Source of the DNA: Myxococcales bacterium | GTDB lineage: Bacteria > Myxococcota > Myxococcia > Myxococcales > Myxococcaceae | Assembly (NCBI GenBank): GCA_030681895.1 | Contig: JAUXRI010000243.1 | Location: forward strand, 1-39,528 | Direction of reading: 5' to 3' | DNA: 39,528 nucleotides | Shown here: positions 11,042 to 37,613 of the stretch, in pieces | How the letters are laid out: each line of letters opens with the position of its first letter | How positions within the stretch are numbered: position 1 is the stretch's first letter | Notes under the pieces: model-generated | Told to the model about the DNA's origin: nothing | The model's database searches: none | What the model saw: the letters and a program-made list of their open reading frames with translations, nothing else | Translations under genes and position numbers: made by a program

Positions 11042-11288
11042 GGTGCCGTCAGCCTTCGTCCGGCTGAACGTCACGCTGAGCATGCCTCCGCTCGTCGTCA
11101 GCTCGCAGCGCAGCCTGGTGCTGCTCGAAGCTCTGGTCCGGGCGCGCTGAAGTTCCGCGCACTCGGGTGACCGACGACCATCGTTCCCGTCGAGTCCAGG
11201 CGCCCGCGCGCCCGTCGACCGACCTCCCCACGTTCAGCAGCTTTCCACCCATCACGCGCGGCCACTGGCCGACGCGAACGAGACCTCT

Positions 11289-13271
11289 ATGTCCACCACC
11301 CTGAAGAGAACCCGCTTGTTCGGCGTGCTCGCGCACGTCGACGCAGGCAAGACCACCGTGAGCGAGCGCATGTTGTTCGCGAGCGGCCGCATTCACCGCA
11401 TCGGTGAGGTGCACCACGGCACCACCACCCTCGACCACGGCGCCGAAGAGAAGAAGCACGGCATCACCATCTCTGCGGCCGCGTCGTCGTTCACCTGGCA
11501 GCCCGCCGGGATGGACGAGCATCACCTCACGCTCATCGACACTCCGGGGCACGTCGACTTCGCCATCGAGGTCGAGCGGGCGCTGCGTGTGCTCGACGGC
11601 GCGGTGGTGGTGCTCGACGCAGGCCGGGGCGTGGAGCCGCAGACCGAGAGCGTGTGGCGCCAGGCCGATCGGCACGGCGTTCCGCGCGTCGTCTTCATCA
11701 ACAAGCTCGACGCTCCGGGAGCGTCGGTGGAGCGCTGTCTCACCGACCTCGCAGAGCGTCTCGGCGCGCGTCCCCTGTTGCTTCAGTGGGTACGGGCCGA
11801 CGGCACCATCATCGACGTCATCGAGCAGCAGGCGCTGCAGTTCGGGCCTGATGGCACGGTGTCGCGCTCGCCAGCCGACGAGGCCGAGCGACGGGAGCTG
11901 CTCGTTCAACGGCTCGCCGAGCTCGACGCGGGTGTGATGGAGGCGTGGGCGCGCGATGAAGACGTCTCGTCCTCGACGCTCCACGCGGCGGTTCGCCGGC
12001 TCACCTGCGCAGGGCAGCTCGTGCCAGTGCTCTGTGGTGCGGCGCTCAAGAACCGGGGCGTTCCTCCGGTGCTCGACGCCGTGGTGCGCTACCTGCCGTC
12101 ACCTGAAGATCGGGTTCTTCCGAGCGGTCTTCGCGCAGTGGAAGACGGAGCGCCGTGTGGCTTCGTCTTCAAGACCGACGTCGACGCGCACGTGGGCAGC
12201 CTGGCCTGGGTCCGCCTGTTCCAGGGCACGGTGCGCCCAGGTGACTCGCTCGTCGTGCGACCGTCCTTGCGGCGGGAGCGCGTCGCGCGCGTGCTCGGGC
12301 TCCATGGTGGCCACTTCGAGCCGATGACGGCGCTCGGACCCGGTGGCATCGCCGCGCTCGTGGGCCTCAAGTCTGCGCGCACGGGTGACACCGTGACGTC
12401 GGAGTCGCTCGATGTCGTCTTCGAGAAGCTCTCGACGGTCGAGCCGGTCGTTCAGCTCGCGTTGTCGGCGAAGTCGACCGAGGAGCAGACGAAGCTCGGT
12501 GAAGCGTTGCGGCGTGCGTGCCTGGAAGATCCATCGCTCCAGGTGCGCGTCGACGGCGAGACGGGGCAGACGGTGCTGTGCGGCGTGGGAGAGCTGCACC
12601 TCGCCATCTGGCTCGAGAAGCTGTCGCGGCGTGAAGGGCTCGAGGTGAGGGCCTCGGCGCCGGCCGTCTCGTATCGAGACACCATCACCGGCGTCGAAAC
12701 CGTGACGTACCGGCACGTTCGACAGAACAGCGGCCCGGGCCAGTTTGCAGTGGTGACGGTGAAGGTCGCGCCGTCACCCGCTGGTGCTGGGGTCTCGTTC
12801 GTCGACGACGTCGAGCGCGGCGTCATTCCTGCCGAGTTCATTCCCGCGGTGGAGCGGGGCGCACGCGCGGCGTTGGAGCGTGGCGTGCGTGAGGGCGTGC
12901 CGGTCGTCGACGTCGAGGTGACGTTGCTCGACGGGCTCACGCACTCGGTGGACTCGAGCCCGATGGCGTTCGAGGTGGCAGCGTCGCTGGCCGTACAGCA
13001 GGCGGTGGAGCGCGCTGGCTTGTGCCGTCTCGAGCCTGTCGCCCGTGCGCAGGTGACGGTTCCGGAGTCGTTCCTGGGGCCGGCACTCGGCGAGGTGGCG
13101 TCGCGGCGTGGCGCGGTGCAGGGCGTGTCGACGGTGGGACCCGTGTGCGTCATCGAGGCGCGGGTGCCCATCGCGCGCACGTTCGGCTTCGTGACGAGTC
13201 TGCGAAGTCGAACCGAAGGGCGCGGCTCGGTGTCACTGAGTCACGCCGGCTTCGAGCCCGTGAAGGCGTAG
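11289..13271 (+). CDS. EF-G-family translational GTPase paralogue (660 aa; EF-G-like / ribosomal-protection-type size).
   Basis: G1 AHVDAGKTT, G3 DTPGH and G4 NKLD are all present. RIGEVHHGTTTLDHGAEEKKHGITI aligns to the EF-G N-terminus. It is about 40 aa shorter than canonical EF-G and is preceded by a 247-nt leader. Confidence 0.85.
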   Translation: MSTTLKRTRLFGVLAHVDAGKTTVSERMLFASGRIHRIGEVHHGTTTLDHGAEEKKHGITISAAASSFTWQPAGMDEHHLTLIDTPGHVDFAIEVERALRVLDGAVVVLDAGRGVEPQTESVWRQADRHGVPRVVFINKLDAPGASVERCLTDLAERLGARPLLLQWVRADGTIIDVIEQQALQFGPDGTVSRSPADEAERRELLVQRLAELDAGVMEAWARDEDVSSSTLHAAVRRLTCAGQLVPVLCGAALKNRGVPPVLDAVVRYLPSPEDRVLPSGLRAVEDGAPCGFVFKTDVDAHVGSLAWVRLFQGTVRPGDSLVVRPSLRRERVARVLGLHGGHFEPMTALGPGGIAALVGLKSARTGDTVTSESLDVVFEKLSTVEPVVQLALSAKSTEEQTKLGEALRRACLEDPSLQVRVDGETGQTVLCGVGELHLAIWLEKLSRREGLEVRASAPAVSYRDTITGVETVTYRHVRQNSGPGQFAVVTVKVAPSPAGAGVSFVDDVERGVIPAEFIPAVERGARAALERGVREGVPVVDVEVTLLDGLTHSVDSSPMAFEVAASLAVQQAVERAGLCRLEPVARAQVTVPESFLGPALGEVASRRGAVQGVSTVGPVCVIEARVPIARTFGFVTSLRSRTEGRGSVSLSHAGFEPVKA

Positions 13272-24936: not shown

Positions 24937-25095
24937 CGGTCAACCCCCGGGAAAGAAGAGCGCAGCCTAGTCGAATGCAGGGCCAAGGCACTTCAGATCA
25001 GTGCGCATAGAACCGGGGGCGCAGGCTCCCGAACGCAACCCTTGCGCAGCCCCGGTCAGTTGATGCAGCGCACGGCGGTCGGCGCGTGGCGTGCA
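24937..25095. promoter_or_regulatory. Divergent intergenic region that must hold promoters for the PEGA gene (minus) and the hox operon (plus).
   Basis: This is a 159-bp gap between divergently oriented start codons. No confident -35/-10 or sigma-54 element could be called in this GC-rich sequence. Confidence 0.3.
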
Positions 25096-26853
25096 ATGCC
25101 TTCGAGCGTGCGCTCCATCGCCGACATTCTCGACGCGCACCAGGGGGATGCCACGCGGTTGGTGCAGATCCTCCTCGAGGTGCAGCGTGAGTCCGGCAAT
25201 TGGTTGCCGGCAAGAGCTCTGACCGAGGTCGCTCGCGGCCTCGGCCTGCCGCGCGCAAAGGTCGAGGGCGTCGCTGGCTTCTATGCGTTCCTCCATCTCG
25301 CTCCGGTGGGCCGCTTCCGGGTGTTGGTGTCGGACAACATCACCGATCAATTCGCAGGGAGCCGCGAGCTGTCGGGCGAGCTGTGTCGGCGCCTCGGGGT
25401 GCAACGCGGCCACGTGCGCAGTGACGGTCGGGTGTCGGTCGACTTCACCTCGTGCACGGGCCTCTGCGACCAGGCGCCCGCCATTCTGGTGAACGGCCTC
25501 GCGGTGCCAGGCGTCGTCGGCGACCGGCTGGACGCGGTCGTGCGGCTGATTGAAGCGAACACCCCGGTCGAGGCGTGGCCCGAGGGGCTGCGGCACGTCG
25601 ACGAGGGCGTTCGCCAGGAAGGGCCGGTGCTGCGCGCCACCATGGATCCCGGCGCAGCGCTGCAAACGATGCTGCATCGGTCGCCTGCCGACGTCTTGCG
25701 CGTGCTCACCGAGTCGAAGCTGCGCGGCCGTGGAGGCGCCGGCTTTCCGGTCGCGACCAAGTGGAACACCTGCCGCGAGGCGCCGGGTGACAGCGTGGTG
25801 GTGTGCAACGCCGATGAAGGCGAGCCGGGCACGTTCAAGGACAGGGTGCTCCTCGCGCGCCGCGCCGACCTCGTGCTCGAGGGAATGACCATCGCCGCGC
25901 GTTTCACCGGCGCGACCGCTGGCTTCATCTATCTACGCGGTGAGTACGCGTTCCTCGCGCCGCACCTTCGCGACGTCATCTCGCGCCGGCGGGCCGCGAA
26001 GCTGCTCGGCACCTCCATCGCCTCGGAGCGCGGCTTCGACTTCGACGTCGAGGTGCACCTCGGCGCCGGCGCGTACGTGTGTGGCGAAGAGACGGCGTTG
26101 CTCGAGTCGCTCGAAGGGCGTCGCGGCGTGCCCCGGCACCGGCCTCCCTTTCCCGTCACGCACGGCTACCTGGGCCGCCCCACCATCGTGAACAACGTCG
26201 AGACGTACGCCGACGCTGCGGTGGTGTTCGCCGGCGGGCTCGACGCGTGGCGGGCGATGGGCACCGAGCAGTCGAGTGGCTCGAAGCTGCTCTCGGTGGC
26301 TGGCGACGTCGACCGGCCCGGCATCTACGAGCTGCCGTGGGGCACCACGCTGCGTGACGTGTTGTCGCTGGCTGGCGCGCGCGCGCCGAAGGCCGTGCAG
26401 GTCAGCGGTCCGTCGGGTGAGTTGGTGGGCCCGAAGGAGTTCGACCGCCGCCTCGCCTTCGAAGACCTGCCCTGCGCGGGCGCCATCGCCGTCTTTGGAG
26501 AAGCGCGCGATCTGCTCGACGTCGTCGTCAACTACGCCCGCTTCTTCGCCCACGAGAGCTGCGGCTTCTGCACGCCCTGCCGCGTCGGCACGCACGTCGC
26601 CGTGCGGAGCCTCGGCAAGCTGCGCGTCGGCCGTGGCTCCCAGACTGAGCTGCAGGAGCTGGCGACGCTCACCCGGCTCCTTCGCGACACGTCTCATTGC
26701 GGGCTCGGCAGCACCGCGCCCAATGCGTGGCGGCACTACCTCGACAAGTTCGGCCTCGACGCGACCCGCCGGTTGAGCGCGACGTTCCGCCCGGCCTTCG
26801 ACGTCGACGCATCGCTCCAGGGCGCGCGCGAGAGCCGGGGAGGCGAGTCATGA
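25096..26853 (+). CDS. hoxF: NAD-reducing hydrogenase diaphorase subunit HoxF (fused NuoE-like + NuoF-like).
   Basis: NuoE-type 2Fe-2S motif CTGLCDQAP. NAD/FMN site RGRGGAGFPVATKW. NuoF-type 4Fe-4S site ESCGFCTPCR. Confidence 0.9.
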   Translation: MPSSVRSIADILDAHQGDATRLVQILLEVQRESGNWLPARALTEVARGLGLPRAKVEGVAGFYAFLHLAPVGRFRVLVSDNITDQFAGSRELSGELCRRLGVQRGHVRSDGRVSVDFTSCTGLCDQAPAILVNGLAVPGVVGDRLDAVVRLIEANTPVEAWPEGLRHVDEGVRQEGPVLRATMDPGAALQTMLHRSPADVLRVLTESKLRGRGGAGFPVATKWNTCREAPGDSVVVCNADEGEPGTFKDRVLLARRADLVLEGMTIAARFTGATAGFIYLRGEYAFLAPHLRDVISRRRAAKLLGTSIASERGFDFDVEVHLGAGAYVCGEETALLESLEGRRGVPRHRPPFPVTHGYLGRPTIVNNVETYADAAVVFAGGLDAWRAMGTEQSSGSKLLSVAGDVDRPGIYELPWGTTLRDVLSLAGARAPKAVQVSGPSGELVGPKEFDRRLAFEDLPCAGAIAVFGEARDLLDVVVNYARFFAHESCGFCTPCRVGTHVAVRSLGKLRVGRGSQTELQELATLTRLLRDTSHCGLGSTAPNAWRHYLDKFGLDATRRLSATFRPAFDVDASLQGARESRGGES

Positions 26854-27563
26854 GCGCGACGTTCACTCTCGATGGTGAGGCGATCGAGTTCGAGCCGGGC
26901 CAGACGCTCATCGAAGCGGCGCGGGTGAAGGGCCGCTTCATTCCGTTTCTCTGCGCGCACCCCGAGTTCCCCGCGCACGGCTCCTGTCGCGTGTGCACCG
27001 TGCTGGTGAACGGCCGGCCGATGGCGTCGTGCACCACGAAGGCGGCCGAAGGGCTGGTCGTCGAGAGCACGACCGCTGAGCTCAAGAGCGACCGGCAGGC
27101 GCTCGTGCAGATGCTCTTCGTCGAGGGCAACCACTTCTGTCCCGGCTGCGAGAAGTCGGGCGGCTGCACGCTCCAGTCGCTGGGCACCGAGCTCGGCGTG
27201 ACGTCAGCCGGGTTCGCCCACGAGTCTCCGCGCCGGCCCGTCGACGCGTCACACCCCGACATCCTCCTCGACTTCAACCGCTGCATCCTCTGCGAGCTGT
27301 GCGTGCGCGCGTCGGCCGACGTCGACCACAAAGACGTCTTCGCGCTCTCGGGCCGTGGCCTGAGCAAACACCTCATCGTGAACGCCGAGTCAGGCCGACT
27401 CGCGGACACGGGCATGTCCACCACCGACAAGGCGATGACGGTGTGCCCGGTGGGCGTCATCTTGAAAAAGCGTCACGGCTTTCACGCGCCCATCGGTGAG
27501 CGCCCGCACGACGTCGAGTCGCCGCGTCAGCACGTGGAGCACGTGAAGGGCAGGGCGCCATGA
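26850..27563 (+). CDS. hoxU: Hydrogenase diaphorase iron-sulfur subunit HoxU (NuoG N-terminal-like).
   Basis: 2Fe-2S Cys motifs (CAHPEF...CRVC). 4Fe-4S motif CPGCEKSGGCTLQ and a further CILCELC cluster. The start overlaps the hoxF stop (ATGA). Confidence 0.9.
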   Translation: MSATFTLDGEAIEFEPGQTLIEAARVKGRFIPFLCAHPEFPAHGSCRVCTVLVNGRPMASCTTKAAEGLVVESTTAELKSDRQALVQMLFVEGNHFCPGCEKSGGCTLQSLGTELGVTSAGFAHESPRRPVDASHPDILLDFNRCILCELCVRASADVDHKDVFALSGRGLSKHLIVNAESGRLADTGMSTTDKAMTVCPVGVILKKRHGFHAPIGERPHDVESPRQHVEHVKGRAP

Positions 27564-28099
27564 CGACGAAGGTGCGCATCGCCACCACGTCACTCGCCGG
27601 CTGCTTCGGTTGCCACATGTCGCTGCTCGACATCGACGAGCGCATTCTGCCGTTGCTCTCGCGTGTGGAGTTCGACCGCTCGCCGCTGACGGACCAGAAG
27701 CACGCTGGGCCCTGCGCCGTGGGGCTCATCGAGGGCGGCGTCTGCAACGAAGACAACCTGCACGTGCTGAAAGAGTTCCGCGCGCAGTGCACCGTGCTGG
27801 TCGCGGTCGGCGCCTGCGCCATCAACGGAGGCCTGCCCGCGCAGCGCAACCACTTCGAGGTGGGCGACCTGCTTCGACACGTCTACTTCGAGGAGCCCGG
27901 ACTCACGCGTCGTGGCGTGCCGAACGACCCCGAGCTGCCGCTGCTGTTCGACAAGGTGCGGCCGCTCCACGAGCTGGTGAAGGTCGACTACTTCATCCCC
28001 GGATGCCCGCCGCCCGCCGAGGCGTTCTGGAGCTTCCTCACCGATTTGTTGGACGGGCGCGAGCCACGGCTGCCGCCAGGAGCGATCCGGTATGACTGA
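27560..28099 (+). CDS. hoxY: [NiFe] hydrogenase small subunit HoxY (NuoB-like).
   Basis: Proximal cluster motif GCFGCHMS and a C-terminal GCPP motif. It overlaps hoxU by ATGA. Confidence 0.9.
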   Translation: MTTKVRIATTSLAGCFGCHMSLLDIDERILPLLSRVEFDRSPLTDQKHAGPCAVGLIEGGVCNEDNLHVLKEFRAQCTVLVAVGACAINGGLPAQRNHFEVGDLLRHVYFEEPGLTRRGVPNDPELPLLFDKVRPLHELVKVDYFIPGCPPPAEAFWSFLTDLLDGREPRLPPGAIRYD

Positions 28100-29525
28100 C
28101 CTGCGCCGCATCGCCATCGACCCCGTCTCCCGTGTCGAGGGGCACGGCAAGGTGACGCTGCTCCTCGACGACGCGGGCCACGTCCACGAGGCGCGGCTGC
28201 ACATCGTCGAGTTCCGCGGCTTCGAGGCCTTCATCGTCGGCCGGCCGTATTGGGAAGTGCCGGTCGTCGTGCAGCGGCTGTGCGGGATCTGCCCCGTCTC
28301 GCACAACCTCTGCGCCTCGAAGGCCCTCGACGCCGTCGTCGGAGGAGTGCCGCCACCGTCGGCCGTGAAGCTGCGTCGCCTCATGCACGCGGGCCAGATG
28401 CTCCAGTCGCATGCGCTGCACTTCTTCCACCTCGCCTCGCCGGACCTGTTGTTCGGCTTCGACAGCGATGTCGCGAAGCGCAACCTGATGGGGCTCGTCG
28501 AGTCGCACCCCGAGATCGCCAAGCAGGGCGTGATGCTGCGCAAGTTCGGGCAGCAGGTGCTCGAGGCCGTCTACGGCAAGCGCATTCACGGCACCGGCGC
28601 CATCCCCGGCGGAGTGAACAAGCACCTGGCGCTCGCCGACCGCGACACGTTTCTTTCGCAGCTGCCGCAGGTCAAGACGTGGGCGCTCGAAGCCGTCGCC
28701 CTCGCGCGGCAGCTCACCGAGTCGAACATGGCGCGGCACGTCGGCTTCGGCGCGGTGCCCTCGAACCTGCTGAGCCTGGTCGCAGCCGACGGCACGCTCG
28801 ACCTCTACGACGGCGGGCTGCGCGCGAAGGACGCGGAGGGGCGGGTGCTCTTCGATGGGCTCGACGCCTCGACGTACCGGCAGCTGATTCAAGAAGAGGT
28901 GCGGCCGTGGTCGTACATGAAGTTCCCCTACCTCTCGGCCATGGGCCCCGAGGCGGGCTGGTACAAGGTCGGCCCGCTCGCGCGCCTGCAGGTGTGCGAC
29001 CGCCTGTCGACGCCGCTGGCCGAGGCTGCGCGCCGAGAGTTCATCGCCAGCTCGCCGTCGACGATTCACGCGCCGCTCGCGTCGCACTGGGCGCGGCTGA
29101 TCGAGCTGCTGCACTCGGCCGAGGAGATCGAGTTGCTCCTCCATGACGAGGACCTGCTCCACGGCGACCTCGTCTCGACGGGTCAGCGGCAACGGGAAGG
29201 GGTCGGCGTCATCGAGGCGCCGCGCGGCACGCTCATTCACCACTACGAGGTGAACGAGGACGACCTGGTGACGCGCTGCAACCTCATCGTCAGCACCACC
29301 AACAACAACCAGGCGATGAACGAGGCGATTCGTTCGGTCGCGCACCAGTACCTCGATGGGCACAGCGTGACCGAGGGCCTGCTCAACCACCTCGAGGTCG
29401 CGGTGCGGGCGTTCGACCCGTGCTTGTCCTGCGCGACGCACGCCATGGGCCAGATGCCGCTCGAGGTGACGCTGCTCGACGCCGCGGGCACCGTCGTCGA
29501 CGTGATGAGGAGGGACGCTTCATGA
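28092..29525 (+). CDS. hoxH: [NiFe] hydrogenase large subunit HoxH.
   Basis: L1 motif RVEGHG. N-terminal Ni ligands RLCGICPVSH. C-terminal Ni ligands DPCLSCATH, followed by a short extension that is the expected HoxW cleavage substrate. Confidence 0.9.
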   Translation: MTDLRRIAIDPVSRVEGHGKVTLLLDDAGHVHEARLHIVEFRGFEAFIVGRPYWEVPVVVQRLCGICPVSHNLCASKALDAVVGGVPPPSAVKLRRLMHAGQMLQSHALHFFHLASPDLLFGFDSDVAKRNLMGLVESHPEIAKQGVMLRKFGQQVLEAVYGKRIHGTGAIPGGVNKHLALADRDTFLSQLPQVKTWALEAVALARQLTESNMARHVGFGAVPSNLLSLVAADGTLDLYDGGLRAKDAEGRVLFDGLDASTYRQLIQEEVRPWSYMKFPYLSAMGPEAGWYKVGPLARLQVCDRLSTPLAEAARREFIASSPSTIHAPLASHWARLIELLHSAEEIELLLHDEDLLHGDLVSTGQRQREGVGVIEAPRGTLIHHYEVNEDDLVTRCNLIVSTTNNNQAMNEAIRSVAHQYLDGHSVTEGLLNHLEVAVRAFDPCLSCATHAMGQMPLEVTLLDAAGTVVDVMRRDAS

Positions 29526-29968
29526 AGCCACGCATGCTCGTCTTTGGCTGGGGCAACCCGTCTCGTGGTGACGATGGCCTGGGCCCCGCGTTCGTGGGCG
29601 AGGCCACCAGGAGGCCGGGCGTCGAGCTGCTCGTCGACTATCAACTGCAGCCGGAGCACGCGCTCGACCTCGTGGGCCGAGAAGAGGTGCTCTTCGTCGA
29701 CGCCAGCACCTCGACGCCAGCGCCCTTCGAGGTGTTCGAGGTGGCACCCGGCCCGAAGGTGACGTTCACCACGCATCACCTGTCTCCGGGGGCGCTCCTG
29801 GCCGTCTTCGAGCGCATCACCGGAAAACCTGCGCCGCGCGCGAGAGTCCTCGCGATTCGAGGCTCGTCATTCGACCTCGGAGAAGGGCTGAGTGAGCGGG
29901 GCCGGAGCAATCTCGAGGCAGCCCTGGCCTGGTGGGACGCCGAGCACCGGGACTCCGTCGCGCACTGA
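29522..29968 (+). CDS. hoxW: Hydrogenase maturation endopeptidase (HoxW/HyaD family).
   Basis: The N-terminus MLVFGWGNPSRGDDGLG is the typical HycI/HyaD protease N-terminal motif. It is 148 aa and overlaps the hoxH stop (ATGA). Confidence 0.85.
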   Translation: MKPRMLVFGWGNPSRGDDGLGPAFVGEATRRPGVELLVDYQLQPEHALDLVGREEVLFVDASTSTPAPFEVFEVAPGPKVTFTTHHLSPGALLAVFERITGKPAPRARVLAIRGSSFDLGEGLSERGRSNLEAALAWWDAEHRDSVAH

Positions 29969-29970
29969 CG

Positions 29971-30792
29971 CTATCGGCGACGCGCGCGAACGAACGGCAA
30001 CGTCACCGCGAAACACAGTGCGAGCAGCAGCACGATGGCGGCGCCTGATGGCGCGTTGAGGCGCGTCGAGACCAGCACGCCGCCGACGCCGCTCACGGTC
30101 GCGACGACGACGCTGGCCCACGTCATGCCGGCCACGCTGCGCGCCACGTTTCGTCCGGCCGCCGCGGGCACGAGCAACATCGCCTCGACCATCAACGCGC
30201 CCAGCACCTTCACCGACGCGACGATGACGAGGGTGAGCAGGGCGACCAGCCCGTACTCCAGCGCTGCTGAGGGGAGTCGTCGCGCGGCCGCCGTGCGGGC
30301 ATCGACCGCGTCGATCAGCAGCGCGTTGTGCCATCTCGCCAGCACTGCCAGCACCACCGCGAGCGTGATGCCGAGCACGATGAGGTCGAGCCGGGTCACC
30401 GTGAGCACCGAGCCGAACATCACCGCTTCGAGTTGGTGCACGTTGAAGCGCTTCGTCACCACGACGAGCAGCAGCACGCCGAGGCCGAGCGTGAAGGCGA
30501 GCAGGACGCCGACCAGCGTGTCCGAGGGGAGCGACGAGCGCCGCCGGACGAAGACGAGCCCGACCCCACAGAGCAGCGAGAAGCCGAGCACGCTGGCCCA
30601 CGGCGCGTCGACCGGCTCACCGAGCAGCACGCCCAGGGAGACGCCGGTGAGCACGGCCTGCCCGAGCGCGGCGGAGAAGAAGGCGAGCCGCCTCGTCAGG
30701 ACCAGCGGGGACAACAGCCCGAGCATCGGCGCCGCGAGCAACACCGCGAGGAGCGCGCGCTGCACGAAGTCGAGGGAGAGCGCCTGAGTCAT
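29971..30792 (-). CDS. Metal (Zn/Mn-type) ABC transporter permease (ZnuB/TroD family).
   Basis: 273 aa with about 8 TM helices, of the ABC-3 family. It overlaps the upstream ATPase gene by 4 bp. Confidence 0.85.
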   Translation of the reverse strand: MTQALSLDFVQRALLAVLLAAPMLGLLSPLVLTRRLAFFSAALGQAVLTGVSLGVLLGEPVDAPWASVLGFSLLCGVGLVFVRRRSSLPSDTLVGVLLAFTLGLGVLLLVVVTKRFNVHQLEAVMFGSVLTVTRLDLIVLGITLAVVLAVLARWHNALLIDAVDARTAAARRLPSAALEYGLVALLTLVIVASVKVLGALMVEAMLLVPAAAGRNVARSVAGMTWASVVVATVSGVGGVLVSTRLNAPSGAAIVLLLALCFAVTLPFVRARRR

Positions 30793-31403
30793 TCAGGGCT
30801 CCCGGTCAGCGTGGTGGTGTGGGTGGCGAGCGCGCCGACGGCGTCGAGGTCGTGCGAGATGAACAACGTCGCGAGCCCCGTGCCTCGAGCGTCCGTCAAG
30901 GCCGTGAGCAGTCGCGCGCGTGAGGCCGCGTCGAGGCCGGCTTCTGGTTCGTCGAGCAACAGCAGCGTGGGCTTCGTCGAGAGGGCGTCGGCGAGCAGCA
31001 CGCGACGCAGTTCTCCTCCCGACAGCTCGCCCAGTTGCGCGCCGAGCAACGCAGAACATCCCGTCAGCTCCAGCGCCTGCTCGACCGCGCGCCGCGTCTC
31101 TCGAGGCACACCGAGCCACGAAGGCCGTGATGTGCGCGAAGCAGCGAGGAACTCGAGCACCGTGACGGGCGTCGCCGCGAGGCCTTCGAAGCGTTGCGGC
31201 ACGATGGCGAGCGTCTCGTTCGTGGCGAGCTCCAACGTGCCTGAGAAGGGGACCAGGCCCAGCACGCAGTCGAGGAAGGTCGACTTCCCGCTGCCGTTGG
31301 GGCCGACGAGCGCGTGCACCTCACCGCGCGCCAGCTCGAGGGAGAGCGGGCGCAACCGCCCCGGCACCGCGACGTCCTTCGCCACGAGCACCCGCTCACT
31401 CAT
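30789..31403 (-). CDS. Metal ABC transporter ATP-binding protein (ZnuC/TroB family, 204 aa).
   Basis: Walker A GPNGSGKST, signature LSGGE, Walker B LLLLDEPEAGLD. The start is MSERVLV. Confidence 0.85.
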   Translation of the reverse strand: MSERVLVAKDVAVPGRLRPLSLELARGEVHALVGPNGSGKSTFLDCVLGLVPFSGTLELATNETLAIVPQRFEGLAATPVTVLEFLAASRTSRPSWLGVPRETRRAVEQALELTGCSALLGAQLGELSGGELRRVLLADALSTKPTLLLLDEPEAGLDAASRARLLTALTDARGTGLATLFISHDLDAVGALATHTTTLTGSPE

Positions 31404-32233
31404 CGCGTCATCACCTGCACGATGGCGTCGAGGTTTCGCTGCAGCTCCACTTCGAAGCGTTCGGGCGTGAAGGCTCCCGTGGCGATGTGGCTCACCACCA
31501 CCACGCTCGCGCCGGCCTCTTCGAGCACCTTCGCCATCGCCGGTGGAAACGTCTCTTCCGAGAACACGACGCTCACCTGTCGGGCCTTCAGGAGCTGCAC
31601 GATGTCGCCCAACTCCGAAGCCGAGGGGAGCAGCCCGTGGGCGGGCTCGACGACGCCAGCCACCTCGAGGCCCAGCTCCTGAAGCAGGTACGCGTACCCG
31701 TCGTGCACGGTGATGACGCGTCGCTGCTTCACGGTCGAGAGCGCTGACACCGTGCTCGCCCGCATCGCGCGAAGGCGCTTCGCGAACGCCGCGGCGTTGC
31801 GCTCGAGCGTCGGTCGCCACTCGGGCCTCAGCTGCGCGAGCGCCCGGGCCAGCGTGTACGACTGCAGCGCCGCGTTCCCCATCGAAAGAAACGTGTGCGA
31901 GTTCGGCGCGGTGCCTGCGTGGGTCTTCAGGAGCGGCGTGCCCTCATTCATCCTGATTCGGGTGAGCGTCTGGTTGCCGGCGGCGCGCACCATCTCGTCG
32001 AGGAAGGCGTCGTGGCCCAGGCCGTTCTCCACCAGCACGTCGAGCGTCGTCAGTGTCGCGACGTCTCGAGGCCGCGGCTGGTAGCTCCCGATGTCGACGT
32101 CGCCCGGGACGACTGCGACGAGCTCGACCGGGAGGCCTTTCGTCACCTGCGACGTCCACGAGTAATACGGGTGGAGCGTCACGCCGATCTTCATGGGCGC
32201 CGCGGCCACAATGAAGCAGACGAGCGCGCTCAT
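31400..32233 (-). CDS. Metal ABC transporter substrate-binding protein (TroA/ZnuA cluster-A family).
   Basis: The signal-like N-terminus is MSALVCFIVAAAPMKIG. Family-typical segments include HPYYSW, VITVHDGYAYLLQELG and VVFSEETFPP. The ATG is at 32231-32233 and a GTG alternative is at 32246-32248. Confidence 0.8.
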   Translation of the reverse strand: MSALVCFIVAAAPMKIGVTLHPYYSWTSQVTKGLPVELVAVVPGDVDIGSYQPRPRDVATLTTLDVLVENGLGHDAFLDEMVRAAGNQTLTRIRMNEGTPLLKTHAGTAPNSHTFLSMGNAALQSYTLARALAQLRPEWRPTLERNAAAFAKRLRAMRASTVSALSTVKQRRVITVHDGYAYLLQELGLEVAGVVEPAHGLLPSASELGDIVQLLKARQVSVVFSEETFPPAMAKVLEEAGASVVVVSHIATGAFTPERFEVELQRNLDAIVQVMTR

Positions 32234-33141
32234 GGCCTCGAGGTGCACGCTGGCAGTTGCTCGAGCGCTGCGGCGTCGTGTGCGGGAATGACGAGGATGT
32301 CGGGGCGCGCCTTCGAGATCGCGTGCAGCAGGCCGAGTGAATCGCCGGTCTGATCGACATCACCATCGATCGGGACGAGGGGGTTCTTGTGCACCGGCGC
32401 CTCGATGCCGCGGCTCGTCCACGAGGTGTCGCCCGAGAACAGTGCCGTACGCCCATCGGTGAGTTTGACGAGGAACCCCGTGCTCCCGGGCGTATGCCCC
32501 GGCAACGGCACCGCGACGATCGAGCCGTCGCCGAAGACGTCGAATGACGAGGGAAAGCCGTCGCGCGCTGGGCCTTTGAAGTCGAACCAGAAGAGGCGCT
32601 CCCTCGCGCGGGCGAGGTGGCTCGTGATCACGCCCTCGTCGAAGAAGCGGCTCAGCCCGCGCGCCCACTCGAGCTCGCCTCGGGCCAGCACGACGCGCGC
32701 GTTGGGCAGGTCGCCGAGCGCGCCGATGTGGTCCCAGTGAGTATGGGTCGCGAGCGCGAGGCTGATGTCCTTCGGGTCGATGCCTGCGGTTTGCATGACG
32801 TCGACCAGGGGGTGTTTCGTGCGGGCGGGCCCCATCAACGCCGCGAACAGCTTTGGCGACCGCGCGAGATCGTTCGCGACGTCACGACCGAACGCCGGGT
32901 CGATCATCACCAGGCCCGCAGGGTGCTTCACCACCACCGACGCGATGCCAAACTGCCACGGCTCGAAGCTCCACTCGGCGACGCCTTCGACGCGCGAGCG
33001 CACCAGCCGCTCCTGCATCAGCACGCACACCTCGACGCCACGGCCAGGCAGCTTCGACGCAGCGACGACGCTCGCCTCGGGAATACGAATGGGCGCGGTG
33101 CACGCGAGCAGGACACACGAGAGAGCCGCGAGGTGGCGCAT
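32230..33141 (-). CDS. Exported MBL-fold metallo-hydrolase (lipoprotein-type signal).
   Basis: It begins MRHLAALSCVLLACT (signal / possible lipobox). It has the metallo-beta-lactamase motifs THTHWDH, GHTPGS and HD. It is the first gene of the metal-importer operon, with a 4-bp overlap. Confidence 0.8.
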   Translation of the reverse strand: MRHLAALSCVLLACTAPIRIPEASVVAASKLPGRGVEVCVLMQERLVRSRVEGVAEWSFEPWQFGIASVVVKHPAGLVMIDPAFGRDVANDLARSPKLFAALMGPARTKHPLVDVMQTAGIDPKDISLALATHTHWDHIGALGDLPNARVVLARGELEWARGLSRFFDEGVITSHLARARERLFWFDFKGPARDGFPSSFDVFGDGSIVAVPLPGHTPGSTGFLVKLTDGRTALFSGDTSWTSRGIEAPVHKNPLVPIDGDVDQTGDSLGLLHAISKARPDILVIPAHDAAALEQLPACTSRP

Positions 33142-34678: not shown

Positions 34679-34762
34679 GGCAGGCCCCCGAGGTGCGACA
34701 CGAACTGCCTGATCATTCCACCGAAGGAGACGTGAGGCGACCTTGGGGTACACTGACCGTCT

Positions 34763-36397
34763 GTGACTGTCCTCGAGCCCGGCACCACGTTTGCCGGCAA
34801 GTACCTGATTGACGGAGTGCTCGGCAAAGGCGGCATGGGCGCGGTGTATTCGGCGACCAACCAGTCCATCGGCCGGCGCGTCGCCATCAAGGTGCTCGTC
34901 GCGGACCTCGCCGATCGTGACGACATCAAGGCGCGCTTCTCGCTCGAGGCGCGCGCTGCGGCCGTCATCAACCACCCCGGCATCGTCGACGTCCTCGACA
35001 TGGGCGAGACGGAGGACGGCGAGCCCTTCATCGTCATGGAGCACCTCGAAGGTGCGACCCTGAAGGCCGTCTTCAAGAAGCACGGCATCTTCGCGCCAGC
35101 GCAGGCGGTGGGCGTCATTCTGCCGCTGCTCGACGCGCTGGCGGCCGCGCATCAGGCGAACGTCATTCATCGCGACATCAAACCCGCGAACATCTTCCTG
35201 TGCACGAAGCCGCAGCGCCTCGTGAAGCTCCTCGACTTCGGCATCTCGCGCTTCGGGCAGAGCACCGGTTTGACTCACTCGGGCACCGCGGTCGGCACGC
35301 CCAAGTACATGGCGCCGGAGCAGCTCCTCGGAGAGAAGTCCCTCGGCCCGTCGGCCGACATCTACTCGGTGGGCGCGGTGCTCTACGAGCTGCTCGGTGG
35401 GCGCGCGCCGTACGATGCCGATAGCGACATCGCCACGCTCGCGAAGCTCTTGAAGGAAGAGCACCAGCCGCTCATCGAGGTCCGGCCTGAGCTCCCCACG
35501 CGGCTGTGTGGCTTCGTCGACGCGCTGCTCGTGAAGGAGCCCGACCGGCGCGCGAAGGACGCCGCGAAGGTGAAGGAGTCACTCATCGCCCTCGTGAAGG
35601 CCGGCGACCTCGGCAGCCTCTTCGACATCGCGCAGGAGTCGGCGGTGCGCAGCCAGTCTGGTGGAACGCCGCGGCCTCCCACCGGTCCCGCGCGCCTGCC
35701 CGTCACGTCTCCCGGCCGCCGGAACTCGGTCACTCGCATGCCCGCCGCGCAGGTGACCGTCGATGACGACGCGCCGTCGCCGCGCCCGTCTGCGAAGCGG
35801 CCGGCCGCGAAGACGCCGAGAACGCCGCCGCCCGTGATGCCGACCGCCCCCGCGCTCGACCCCGTCGAGGAGCTGCCGCCGCGTCGCACGGGCCTCGTCG
35901 CCGCCGTCGTCATCGCGATGGTGGGGCTCATCGTCGGCGCGGGCCTCTTCCTGGCGCTCGGGAAGTCGGACGATGCTGAGCCCGTGGTCGTCACTCCGCC
36001 GACGAAGGTCCCGAAGTTGCCGGCTGCCAGAGAGCCAGTGAGGCCTCCAGTGAACGCCATTCCGACGCCCGTCGTGGTGACGCTCACGGCCGAACCTGCG
36101 AGCGCCCGCTTCGAGGTCGACGGTGAGAAGCTCGAGGGCAACCCCGTCACGCTGACGCGGGAGAAGGGCAGCGGCGCCGCCGTCGTGACCACCGCGCAGG
36201 GGTTCGAGCCGCGGTCCATCCAGCTCGCCTTCACCGAGACCCGCGAAGAGCGCGTGACGTTGACCCGCCTCGTCGCCGCCGTCGCGCCGCCGGCCCAGGA
36301 GCCGCGGCACCCGAAGCCCGGCACCAGGCCACCGCCCCCGCCCGGCGGCAAGAAGGGCGGCAAGCTGACCGTCGACGAGACGAACCCGTACGAGTGA
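34763..36397 (+). CDS. Eukaryote-like Ser/Thr protein kinase with a TM helix and an extracytoplasmic PEGA domain.
   Basis: Gly-loop LGKGGMGAVY, VAIK, HRDIKPANIF, DFG and APE motifs. A TM segment VAAVVIAMVGLIVGAGLFLAL follows. The C-terminal PEGA core is ARFEVDGEKLEGNPVTL. GTG start at 34763. Confidence 0.85.
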   Translation: MTVLEPGTTFAGKYLIDGVLGKGGMGAVYSATNQSIGRRVAIKVLVADLADRDDIKARFSLEARAAAVINHPGIVDVLDMGETEDGEPFIVMEHLEGATLKAVFKKHGIFAPAQAVGVILPLLDALAAAHQANVIHRDIKPANIFLCTKPQRLVKLLDFGISRFGQSTGLTHSGTAVGTPKYMAPEQLLGEKSLGPSADIYSVGAVLYELLGGRAPYDADSDIATLAKLLKEEHQPLIEVRPELPTRLCGFVDALLVKEPDRRAKDAAKVKESLIALVKAGDLGSLFDIAQESAVRSQSGGTPRPPTGPARLPVTSPGRRNSVTRMPAAQVTVDDDAPSPRPSAKRPAAKTPRTPPPVMPTAPALDPVEELPPRRTGLVAAVVIAMVGLIVGAGLFLALGKSDDAEPVVVTPPTKVPKLPAAREPVRPPVNAIPTPVVVTLTAEPASARFEVDGEKLEGNPVTLTREKGSGAAVVTTAQGFEPRSIQLAFTETREERVTLTRLVAAVAPPAQEPRHPKPGTRPPPPPGGKKGGKLTVDETNPYE

Positions 36398-36425
36398 GCG
36401 ACGACTTCGGGGTAGGCTCCCGCTC

Positions 36426-37613
36426 GTGCTCCTCACCCGCTGGCTGCTCGCGCTGACGCTGCTCTCGTCGCCGCTCGCGTTCGCCCAGGGCGCCGCCGCG
36501 AAGAAAGAGGCCGCGGCGAAGAAGAACGAGGCGGCCGCGAAGAAGAACGAGGCCGCCGACCACTACAAGAAGGGCGTCGGGCTCTTCAAAGAGGGCGACT
36601 TCGCCTCGGCGCTCGCCGAGTTCCGCGCCGCGTACCAGGCCGTGCCCGGCTTCGAGGTGCTCTACAACCTCGGCCTCACCGAGCGCCGGCTCTTCAAGTA
36701 CGGCCAGGCCGTGAAGACCCTCAACCGCTACCTCGAGGAGGGCGGCAAGAAGGTGCCCGCGGACCGCCGAGAGAGCGTCGAGACCGAGCTGTCGCAGATT
36801 CGCGCGCTGACCTCGAAGATCAACGTGAAGGTCGAGGGTGCTCCGGCGAAAGTGTTCGTCGATGGTGAAGAGGTCGGCACCTCGCCGCTCGCCGACCCGA
36901 TTCTGCTGGGGCCCGGCAAACACACCATTCGCGCTACGCGTGACGGTGAGCCCGAGGCCGAAGAGACGTTCGAGCTCGCCTCAGGCTCGACGAAAGACGT
37001 GAACCTCGCGCTCAAGCCGAAGGCGCCGTCGGGGCCGGTCGAAATCACCATCGAGACCGACCCGCGTGACGCCGTGCTGATGCTCGATGGCAAGCTGGCC
37101 GGCCTCTCGCCGACGAAGGTCGAGCTGACGGCGGGCTCCCACGAGCTCATCGCCGAGCTCGATGGCTTTCAGTCGACCCGCACCGACGTGATGGTCGAGC
37201 CCGGCAAGCCGCGCACCGTGAAGCTCAAGCTCGTCGCAGGTGGCGCGTCGGCCGGTGGTGGTGGGCCGCGTGGCCGCTTTCCCGTGGTCGGCGTCATTCT
37301 CTTCGGCGCTGGCGTCGTGGCGGGCGGCCTCGCGGTGCTCTTCGCGGTGCAGTCCACCAACGCGTCCCGGCAGGTCTCCGAGTTCTTCCGCATCGGCGGC
37401 CCGTGGGACCCGATGCGCATCGCCGTGGAGCAGGGCGGCCGGCGCGACCAGACCCTCGCGGGCGTCTTCATCGGCATCTCGGGCGCGGCGATCGCGGGTG
37501 GCGTCATCGCCACCATCGTCAGCCTCGCGAGCCCGAGCGAAGAGTCCGAAGCCCACTTCTTCATCACCCCTTCCGCGAACGGAGCGCTGGCGACATGGTC
37601 AACCCGCTTCTGA
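36426..37613 (+). CDS. Secreted TPR-like + tandem PEGA-domain membrane protein.
   Basis: The signal peptide is LLTRWLLALTLLSSPLAFAQG. An AAKKNEA x3 repeat follows, then a TPR-like helix pair. There are two PEGA cores (AKVFVDGEEVGTSPL and AVLMLDGKLAGLSPT). Two TM helices lie near the C-terminus. GTG start at 36426. Confidence 0.7.
   Translation: MLLTRWLLALTLLSSPLAFAQGAAAKKEAAAKKNEAAAKKNEAADHYKKGVGLFKEGDFASALAEFRAAYQAVPGFEVLYNLGLTERRLFKYGQAVKTLNRYLEEGGKKVPADRRESVETELSQIRALTSKINVKVEGAPAKVFVDGEEVGTSPLADPILLGPGKHTIRATRDGEPEAEETFELASGSTKDVNLALKPKAPSGPVEITIETDPRDAVLMLDGKLAGLSPTKVELTAGSHELIAELDGFQSTRTDVMVEPGKPRTVKLKLVAGGASAGGGGPRGRFPVVGVILFGAGVVAGGLAVLFAVQSTNASRQVSEFFRIGGPWDPMRIAVEQGGRRDQTLAGVFIGISGAAIAGGVIATIVSLASPSEESEAHFFITPSANGALATWSTRF

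Follow-up and report, generated by a model that had tools for sequence, protein, structure and literature searches.

A predicted soluble NAD(H)-linked [NiFe] hydrogenase operon, hoxFUYH-hoxW, on a contig from an uncultured myxobacterium

Myxobacteria are regarded as aerobic predators, and a chain of hydrogenase genes on a contig labelled Myxococcales raises the question of which enzyme these genes encode, how it would be matured and what it would do in its host. The window, by which we mean the whole stretch of DNA that was analyzed, is an entire 39.5-kb contig of a metagenome-assembled genome (MAG) from an uncultured organism. We propose that the region very probably encodes a complete soluble NAD(H)-linked [NiFe] hydrogenase, the heterotetramer HoxFUYH of group 3d and of the Ralstonia/Hydrogenophilus subtype, together with the protease HoxW; this high confidence covers both the identity of the enzyme and the mechanism set out below.

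Composition and class of the operon

Reading of the sequence bore out the five-gene chain that an earlier note on this DNA had described (Table 1): the hoxF/hoxU, hoxU/hoxY and hoxH/hoxW junctions are ATGA overlaps, and hoxY and hoxH share 8 bp (ATGACTGA). The first gene is hoxF, preceded by a divergent intergenic region. Since its ATG at 25096 is not kept as a start in relatives and a GTG at 25108 is kept in all 5 of the 5 aligned loci, the true hoxF start may be 25108 instead. The note had also described the operon as lacking hoxE, and our Pfam and NCBIfam scans of the ORFs revealed no separate hoxE in the window; the only match of the HoxE and NuoE models was the N-terminal domain of HoxF.

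Table 1. Positions of the hox genes and of the features upstream of them in the window
Feature	Position	Strand	Description
ack	21261-22346	-	acetate kinase; Pfam Acetate_kinase, 337.7 bits
pta	22343-23743	-	MaoC-domain phosphate acetyltransferase; Pfam PTA_PTB + MaoC
PEGA-domain gene	23800-24939	-	only gene between pta and the intergenic region
candidate operator	25034-25046		perfect palindrome CGCAA-N3-TTGCG; sole match in the window
hoxF	25096-26853	+	diaphorase subunit, NuoE-like + NuoF-like fusion
hoxU	26850-27563	+	NuoG-N-terminal-like iron-sulfur subunit, 237 aa
hoxY	27560-28099	+	hydrogenase small subunit, 179 aa
hoxH	28092-29525	+	[NiFe] large subunit
hoxW	29522-29968	+	predicted hydrogenase-specific C-terminal endopeptidase, 148 aa

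All four structural subunits have their best solved relatives in chains A-D of 5XF9, the NAD+-reducing hydrogenase of Hydrogenophilus thermoluteolus: HoxF matches 5XF9_A (483.6 bits, E = 7e-144), HoxU 5XF9_B (248.9 bits, E = 5e-73), HoxY 5XF9_C (239.2 bits, E = 2e-70) and HoxH 5XF9_D (623.6 bits, E = 2e-186, 63% identity). This supports the group 3d reading made in the earlier note, and phylogeny, which the note had named among possible refutations, points the same way: in a neighbor-joining tree, which carries no support values, the clade of the window HoxH lies inside the clade that holds 5XF9_D. By PDB group, the HoxH score falls from the 3d enzyme to the HydABCSL-type 7T2R_D (502.7 bits), MvhA of group 3c (403.6 bits), the 3b sulfhydrogenase (120.5 bits) and the 3a enzyme Frh (about 117 bits). 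The HoxH sequence is MDP1920226.1 in the protein database; its close homologues are named "NAD-reducing hydrogenase large subunit" in the source databases, and HoxH homologues fall in the precomputed Pfam family PF27537 (HoxH). The diaphorase partners are co-encoded, as a NuoF-like HoxF and a HoxU that resembles the N-terminal part of NuoG (Pfam, NCBIfam). HoxU scores 164.8 bits against the NCBIfam HoxU model and matches Fer2_4, NADH-G_4Fe-4S_3 and Fer4_15 in Pfam, where HoxY matches Oxidored_q6.

That the operon encodes a HydABCSL-type electron-bifurcating NiFe hydrogenase, which would couple NAD(H) and ferredoxin, is improbable in the extreme. Although 7T2R is the second-best solved relative of HoxH (503 bits, rounded) and of the NuoF part of HoxF (305 bits), all subunits score much higher against the non-bifurcating 5XF9, HoxU has 237 aa against 692 aa for subunit A of 7T2R, and Pfam reveals no extra ferredoxin domains in HoxF; moreover, where 7T2R has subunit C as a protein of its own, the NuoE-like counterpart here is a part of HoxF, and two of its cluster cysteines are missing. 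Even less probable is another group 3 class, be it the NADP-coupled 3b or the heterodisulfide-reductase-linked 3c. NCBIfam gave no HoxH- or HoxY-specific match, and its top matches were VhuA for the large subunit (395 bits) and VhuG for the small subunit (138 bits), but these scores are far under the respective cut-offs of 800 and 450, the partners are NuoF- and NuoG-like diaphorase subunits rather than Hdr/MvhD or HydB/HydG, and the 3d enzyme ranks first in the PDB.

In HoxH of the proposed group 3d enzyme, the Ni-Fe motifs are R62-L-C64-G-I-C67 and D442-P-C444-L-S-C447-A-T-H450, with C64, C67, C444 and C447 as ligands; the ligand motifs are invariant in a 12-sequence alignment, and a C-terminal extension of 27 residues follows H450. 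HoxY has the ligands of a proximal [4Fe-4S] cluster only (C15/C18/C86/C149), and the absence of a twin-arginine motif or Tat signal from its N terminus (MTTKVRIATTSLAGC) fits a cytoplasmic enzyme. The ligand sets of HoxU (C35/C46/C49/C61; H95-x-C97-x2-C100-x5-C106; C145-x2-C148-x2-C151...C199) are the predicted sites of one [2Fe-2S] and two [4Fe-4S] clusters. HoxF begins with a NuoE-like thioredoxin-fold domain at residues ~9-150 (Pfam 2Fe-2S_thioredx, residues 9-150), and its remainder is NuoF-like, FMN- and NAD(H)-binding and with a [4Fe-4S] site (Complex1_51K, SLBB, NADH_4Fe-4S); the motifs are GRGGAGF, NADEGEPG, GAGAYVCGEE and C489-x2-C492-x2-C495...C535 (CGFCTPC...C535).

The earlier statement that all cofactor motifs are intact holds for HoxH, HoxY, HoxU and the FMN/NAD/4Fe-4S part of HoxF, but not for the NuoE-like [2Fe-2S] site, which had been called intact in its own right. 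There, the C-x4-C...C-x3-C set is incomplete: the ligands C83/C88/C124/C128 of Thermus Nqo2 align with S79/D84/C120/C124 of HoxF, so that S79 and D84 replace the first two cysteines and two of the four remain. Judged by these residues, a canonical [2Fe-2S] cluster is most probably absent from the domain. HoxF of Ralstonia eutropha, an Nqo2-Nqo1 fusion, is described without cluster N1a (PMC3189943); taken together with this, the incomplete N1a ligand set strengthens the Ralstonia-type assignment. The S-D-C-C site is strongly conserved, in 64 of 73 clade members among the matches listed, and it is a possibility that these residues form an unusual Cys2/Asp/Ser-ligated cluster or metal site rather than a vestigial one.

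We suggest the following mechanism. By homology to the H. thermoluteolus enzyme, the Ni-Fe site of HoxH would split or form H2, and electrons would run through the single proximal [4Fe-4S] cluster of HoxY, next through the HoxU clusters ([4Fe-4S] and [2Fe-2S]) and on through the [4Fe-4S] cluster of HoxF to FMN, where NAD+ would be reduced or NADH oxidized. Catalytic activity and NAD specificity of HoxFUYH are predicted from sequence. Analogy suggests that the enzyme may be oxygen-tolerant and its host aerobic. O2 tolerance, for which no decisive sequence signature is known to us, has been demonstrated in relatives only (PMC12809855).

Maturation and retention of the cassette

The HoxH precursor would have its metal inserted by Hyp proteins whose genes would lie in another part of the genome, after which HoxW would cut off the 27 residues beyond H450. 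HoxW had been put forward as the dedicated protease, and its match to TIGR00072 (hydrogenase maturation protease) is above the cut-off (73.9 bits against 47.45). It is by TIGR00072 only that the protein is identified, as it gave no Pfam match and no PDB sequence match; its motifs are GNPSRGDDGLG, VDAS and HHLSP. Its gene lies directly downstream of hoxH, likewise in five related loci.

Neither Pfam scans of large ORFs, picked by codon-position GC, nor tblastn found hypA, B, D, E or F in the window, in agreement with the earlier note. With a myxobacterial HypD as query, none of the 120 matches listed was labelled Myxococcaceae or Archangiaceae; they carried the labels Polyangiaceae, Myxococcales, Myxococcota or Deltaproteobacteria, or none. 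Pfam scans and tblastn found no Ni transporter on the contig. An ABC-3 permease gene runs towards hoxW from the other side and ends 2 bp past it. A ZnuABC-like transporter is encoded downstream, but as a candidate Ni importer it was discarded: its matches are ZnuA and ABC-3 (the zinc-uptake and ABC 3 transport families of Pfam), and it is missing from one related locus, L002, despite the same hox cassette. Among the loci listed, 36 of the 50 related loci with full flanks (72%) have no hyp genes within 10 kb. The absence of adjacent hyp genes is thus the majority state in the clade, and their local absence here says little.

The five-gene cassette recurs with identical overlaps in five loci (L001, L002, L083-85). 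They belong to myxobacterial assemblies close to that of the window, some of which bear the label Myxococcaceae, and their HoxH shares 83-95% identity with the HoxH of the window; close HoxH relatives are labelled Archangiaceae and Archangium sp. in the sources. A hox operon is also present in a second Myxococcota group (Polyangiaceae and Haliangiales, among the matches listed). With these occurrences, the remark that the operon is notable in a myxobacterium was overstated. A scan of genome contigs returned relatives at 63-69% identity among the matches listed, where the closest myxobacterial ones do not appear. In the literature on soluble hydrogenases in Myxococcota, we found incidental mentions only. 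Against three relatives, all five genes have dN/dS values of 0.09-0.25, and the hox cassette is under purifying selection.

These results bear on the idea that the cassette was acquired horizontally and is non-functional, with no hyp genes in the genome to mature its product; we consider this very unlikely. The contig indeed has no hypA, B, D, E or F, and the surroundings of the cassette differ among related MAGs, which suggests mobility. However, every ligand and reading frame is intact, dN/dS is low throughout, the cassette is retained in the close relatives, and most related loci listed likewise lack hyp genes nearby.

Upstream region and physiological role

The divergent region between PEGA-pta-ack and hoxF spans 156 bp. 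The palindrome CGCAA-N3-TTGCG within it is found at an equal relative position upstream of hoxF in all five related loci, and L002 keeps it despite a different upstream neighbour; it is a candidate operator. A scan for sigma-70-like promoters in the region gave no match, and a terminator-like site there is at chance level only. No Rfam families were found in the window, where repeats, too, are at chance level only.

The ack gene overlaps the pta stop codon by 4 bp, and its length agrees with the 361-aa calls in L083-85. The pta-ack neighbourhood is also found at four of the five related loci; L002 has the hox cassette without pta-ack. More broadly, pta and/or ack adjoin hox in 16 of the 50 full-flank related loci, among the loci listed. 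The pta-ack genes may be functionally linked with hox. The window Ack is 48% identical to a hox-linked Ack of Dechloromonas (tblastn) and the window Pta 47% identical to a hox-linked Pta of Rhodocyclaceae, and the nearest taxon-labelled non-myxobacterial relatives of Pta are alphaproteobacterial. Co-transfer of pta-ack and hox from Rhodocyclaceae was rejected on these two results on Pta, which also mean that the neighbourhood of pta-ack and hox could be coincidence.

Our best guess for the role of the enzyme is a reversible redox valve that would pass excess NADH to H2 at limiting O2, beside the formation of acetate and ATP by Pta and Ack; such a hydrogenase could also take up H2. The position of pta-ack opposite hoxF across the 156 bp supports this role. 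In Accumulibacter, a hox operon adjoins an acetate-activation gene and is induced by anaerobic contact with acetate, and H2 is produced (PMC4796919). Whether H2 evolution is the emphasis is evenly balanced in our judgment, and, since the closest characterized relatives belong to H2-uptake Knallgas bacteria, that emphasis is weakly grounded. It is rather unlikely that hoxFUYHW and PEGA-pta-ack form a mainly H2-evolving, two-armed fermentation module whose arms share the 156-bp control region with the CGCAA-N3-TTGCG operator. If true, such a module would let members of a group regarded as aerobic predators dispose of NADH and form ATP anaerobically.

The same enzyme may instead serve H2 uptake, delivering NADH for energy or mixotrophy as in Cupriavidus necator, Hydrogenophilus and Hydrogenophaga, a serious possibility to which we give somewhat less than an even chance. 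The nearest solved or characterized enzymes come from aerobic H2 oxidizers, and the enzyme class is reversible. The 39.5-kb contig, however, lacks genes for CO2 fixation, regulators of the hoxA/hoxBCJ type and any second hydrogenase, whether membrane-bound or sensor, and the neighbours of hox are the fermentation-type pta-ack. The operon hints at an exchange of reducing power with H2 in some myxobacteria and adds one more host lineage for the soluble NAD-linked hydrogenase, namely uncultured MAGs labelled Myxococcales or Myxococcaceae.

Relation to known soluble hydrogenases

The window enzyme belongs, as an ordinary representative, to a widespread, well-studied family, the understanding of which it leaves unchanged. 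SH-type enzymes that work under O2 are sought for recycling cofactors with H2, and useful variants could come from the divergent clade, whose HoxH is 63-66% identical to the solved or characterized relatives compared.

In the cyanobacterial HoxEFUYH of group 3d, a HoxFU diaphorase module is combined with a HoxYH hydrogenase module as in the window, but these enzymes have a separate HoxE with a [2Fe-2S] cluster, whereas the window has only the N-terminal domain of HoxF with two of the four cysteines. Closer is HoxFUYHI2 of C. necator (R. eutropha) H16, encoded by hoxFUYHWI: as judged by gene order and descriptions, it has the order hoxF-U-Y-H-W in common with the window and likewise no separate hoxE, but in the window no hoxI follows hoxW and no hyp genes lie near the operon. 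The gene set of the window, hoxFUYH and hoxW with no hoxI, equals that of HpSH from Hydrogenophaga pseudoflava, an enzyme shown biochemically to reduce NAD+, and O2 to H2O2 (PMC12809855). HoxH of three Hydrogenophaga loci, from genomes other than the characterized strain, is 64-65% identical to that of the window; unlike the window's host, H. pseudoflava is a betaproteobacterial Knallgas bacterium.

The H. thermoluteolus enzyme (5XF9/5XFA) has the same four subunits at nearly equal lengths. Its Ni-Fe ligands, the conserved Glu in SRVEGHG, the proximal cluster of HoxY, the clusters of HoxU and the FMN and [4Fe-4S] motifs of HoxF all align with the window proteins. The host is a thermophilic betaproteobacterial H2 oxidizer, against an uncultured myxobacterial MAG here. 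The likeness extends to the NuoE-like N-terminal domain of HoxF, in which the Cys set is also incomplete, with D-D-C-S at the N1a-equivalent positions in H. thermoluteolus and S-D-C-C in the window.

Identity of the hox operon

From the domain and structure searches, the operon encodes an ordinary member of a well-characterised, widely distributed family. It had been read as a group 3d, Ralstonia-type soluble NAD-linked hydrogenase operon, and this core reading is right: the top PDB match of every structural subunit was the corresponding chain of 5XF9, the NAD-reducing hydrogenase of Hydrogenophilus thermoluteolus (Ht enzyme), with 483.6 bits for HoxF, 248.9 for HoxU, 239.2 for HoxY and 623.6 for HoxH, and the HoxH of the Ht enzyme is 63% identical to ours. 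Against the remaining group 3 classes, HoxH gave 503 bits (HydABCSL-type), 404 (Mvh, 3c), 120 (sulfhydrogenase, 3b) and about 117 (Frh, 3a) in the same PDB search. By Pfam and NCBIfam, HoxF combines a NuoE-like thioredoxin fold, a NuoF FMN domain, SLBB and the NuoF [4Fe-4S] region; HoxU has NuoG-type [2Fe-2S] and [4Fe-4S] domains and matches the HoxU model best. HoxY is an Oxidored_q6 protein and HoxH a NiFeSe_Hases protein; no HoxH- or HoxY-specific NCBIfam match was returned for these two, and their best ones, VhuG and VhuA, respectively, lie far under the model cut-offs. HoxW scored 73.9 bits against the hydrogenase maturation protease model TIGR00072 (cut-off 47.45). HoxH is deposited as MDP1920226.1, [quoted passage not shown] The window is one entire contig of 39,528 bp, and its G+C content is 69%.

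Reading the sequence, we found the five genes chained as the earlier note described, by ATGA overlaps (F/U, U/Y and H/W) and an 8-bp Y/H overlap. hoxU, hoxH and hoxW each have a purine-rich, Shine-Dalgarno-like stretch ahead of them; in the same reading, none was seen before the hoxF ATG at 25096. In the alignment with relatives this ATG is replaced by CTG, GAC or GTC, while the GTG at 25108, four codons later, is kept in all five aligned loci. The true start of hoxF may therefore be 25108 rather than 25096, judging from this conservation. In two related loci, L001 and L002, the called start is that GTG (581 aa); in three others, L083-85, it lies a long way upstream (616 aa). The divergent intergenic region between hoxF and the PEGA gene spans 156 bp and carries a perfect palindrome, CGCAA-N3-TTGCG, which has a single match in the whole window. 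It occurs at the same place upstream of hoxF in 5 of 5 close relatives, even in L002, where another gene lies upstream, and we regard it as a candidate operator.

Positions of the hox genes and their neighbours in the window
Feature	Position	Strand	Remark
EF-G-family GTPase gene	11151-13271	+	full-length, all five EF-G domains
Major vault protein homologue	18444-20795	-	Pfam MVP_shoulder (104 bits) and Vault_3
ack	21261-22346	-	upstream of hox
pta with MaoC-like domain	22343-23743	-	upstream of hox
PEGA-domain protein gene	23800-24939	-	between pta and hox control region
Palindrome CGCAA-N3-TTGCG	25034-25046		PEGA gene/hoxF intergenic region
hoxF	25096-26853	+	sequence reading
hoxU	26850-27563	+	sequence reading
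hoxY	27560-28099	+	sequence reading
hoxH	28092-29525	+	sequence reading
hoxW	29522-29968	+	sequence reading
ZnuABC-like transporter	29971-32359	-	convergent with hoxW, gap 2 bp
ABC-3 permease gene (of this transporter)	29971-30792	-	convergent with hoxW
ZnuA gene	31400-32359	-	downstream of hox, as is the transporter's ATPase gene
PEGA/Ser/Thr kinase region	34757-36397	+	
PEGA/Ser/Thr kinase region	36369-37613	+	

Cofactor sites and the N1a position of HoxF

The cofactor motifs had all been described as intact, and most are. HoxH has its Ni ligands in RLCGIC (C64, C67) and DPCLSCATH (C444, C447, H450); the ligand-motif residues are unchanged across 12 aligned homologues, and a 27-residue extension follows H450. 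HoxY retains all four cysteines of the proximal cluster, and its sequence shows no twin-arginine signal. HoxU carries one [2Fe-2S] and two [4Fe-4S] patterns, and HoxF has the FMN/NAD(H) motifs as well as C489, C492, C495 and C535. The exception is the NuoE-like [2Fe-2S] cluster (N1a) of HoxF: aligned to the Thermus Nqo2 ligands C83, C88, C124 and C128, the window protein has S79, D84, C120 and C124. In the Ht enzyme these positions read D-D-C-S, against S-D-C-C in the window HoxF, and the HoxF of R. eutropha is described as an Nqo2-Nqo1 fusion without cluster N1a (PMC3189943). The incomplete site therefore backs, rather than weakens, the Ralstonia-type assignment. S-D-C-C is found in 64 of the 73 HoxF proteins of the clade, a conservation that, from these alignments, appears stronger than a vestigial site would lead one to expect. 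Around residues 79-124 (window 25330-25467), an SDN(I/V)TD loop is kept in five aligned sequences.

Relatives, neighbouring genes and physiological direction

The closest HoxH relatives (82-98% identical) belong to MAGs with the labels Myxococcales, Myxococcaceae, Archangiaceae or Archangium sp., and a second tier, at about 66-70%, is mostly from Burkholderiales and Rhodocyclales but includes other Myxococcota as well. The enzyme had been called notable in a myxobacterium-like aerobe; it is not unique within Myxococcota. The five fetched close-relative loci (L001, L002, L083-85) all carry this cassette, overlaps included, and the matches listed include at least 80 GTDB-representative loci, the majority from Betaproteobacteria and six from Myxococcota. 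A neighbour-joining tree, built without support values, shows the window clade as its own lineage within the clade holding the Ht enzyme, apart from a Polyangiaceae/Haliangiales group. All five hox genes are under purifying selection (dN/dS 0.09-0.25, window against three relatives). The ack-pta-PEGA/hox/znu neighbourhood is common to the window, L001 and L083-85; in L002 the cassette sits in a different genomic context and the ZnuABC-like genes are missing. This transporter is probably a Zn/Mn system, not a Ni importer, and beyond it lie genes for a metallo-beta-lactamase-fold protein and a Ser/Thr kinase. A homologue of the eukaryotic major vault protein adjoins ack on its hox-distal side, and L083-85 have a conserved 716-aa version at the same place. 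The EF-G-family gene, apart from any ribosomal-protein operon, possibly encodes an EF-G paralogue. The regions 23800-24939, 34757-36397 and 36369-37613 encode PEGA-domain proteins (two) and one Ser/Thr protein kinase, types of gene that myxobacteria commonly have.

The absence of hypA, B, D, E and F from the window was borne out: these five were found neither by Pfam, which covered the large ORFs picked by codon-position GC, nor by tblastn. Of 50 related loci whose 10-kb flanks are complete, 14 contain at least one hyp gene, and 11 of them three or more, so that a lack of hyp genes nearby is the common state, not a peculiarity.

Divergent ack-pta genes lie upstream of hoxFUYHW not just in the window's myxobacterial clade but also in many loci from Rhodocyclaceae (loci noted for this linkage: L003, L021, L022, L026, L032, L033, L036, L042, L045, L048, L071 and L074). 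The PEGA gene next to pta may be co-transcribed with pta-ack. In 16 of the 50 full-flank loci, pta and/or ack are no more than 10 kb away from hox; many such loci are from Rhodocyclaceae, e.g., Dechloromonas, Azonexus and Accumulibacter, where ack-pta is often accompanied by fabI, usp and phaC. The window Pta is only 47% identical to a hox-linked Pta from Rhodocyclaceae (tblastn), and its closest taxon-labelled non-myxobacterial relatives are alphaproteobacterial; the neighbourhood therefore looks independently arisen, which would weakly favour a functional link. In Accumulibacter, an acetate-activation gene adjoins the hox operon, which is induced on anaerobic acetate contact, with H2 being made (PMC4796919). 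We hypothesize that the window enzyme could dispose of NADH as H2 while acetate and ATP are formed through pta-ack; the same enzyme working in H2 uptake is about equally probable.

Proposed mechanism and comparison with known enzymes

By homology with the Ht enzyme, the Ni-Fe site of HoxH would split or form H2, and electrons would reach FMN and NAD(H) by way of HoxY, HoxU and HoxF. HoxW would trim HoxH once Hyp-dependent metal insertion is done. The window enzyme is putatively NAD-specific and oxygen-tolerant. There is no room for a hoxI behind hoxW, since the convergent permease gene ends 2 bp further on. The soluble hydrogenase of Hydrogenophaga pseudoflava likewise has the gene set hoxFUYH and hoxW without hoxI, and it reduces NAD+ and also O2 to H2O2 (PMC12809855); the window HoxH shares 64-65% identity with that of three Hydrogenophaga loci.
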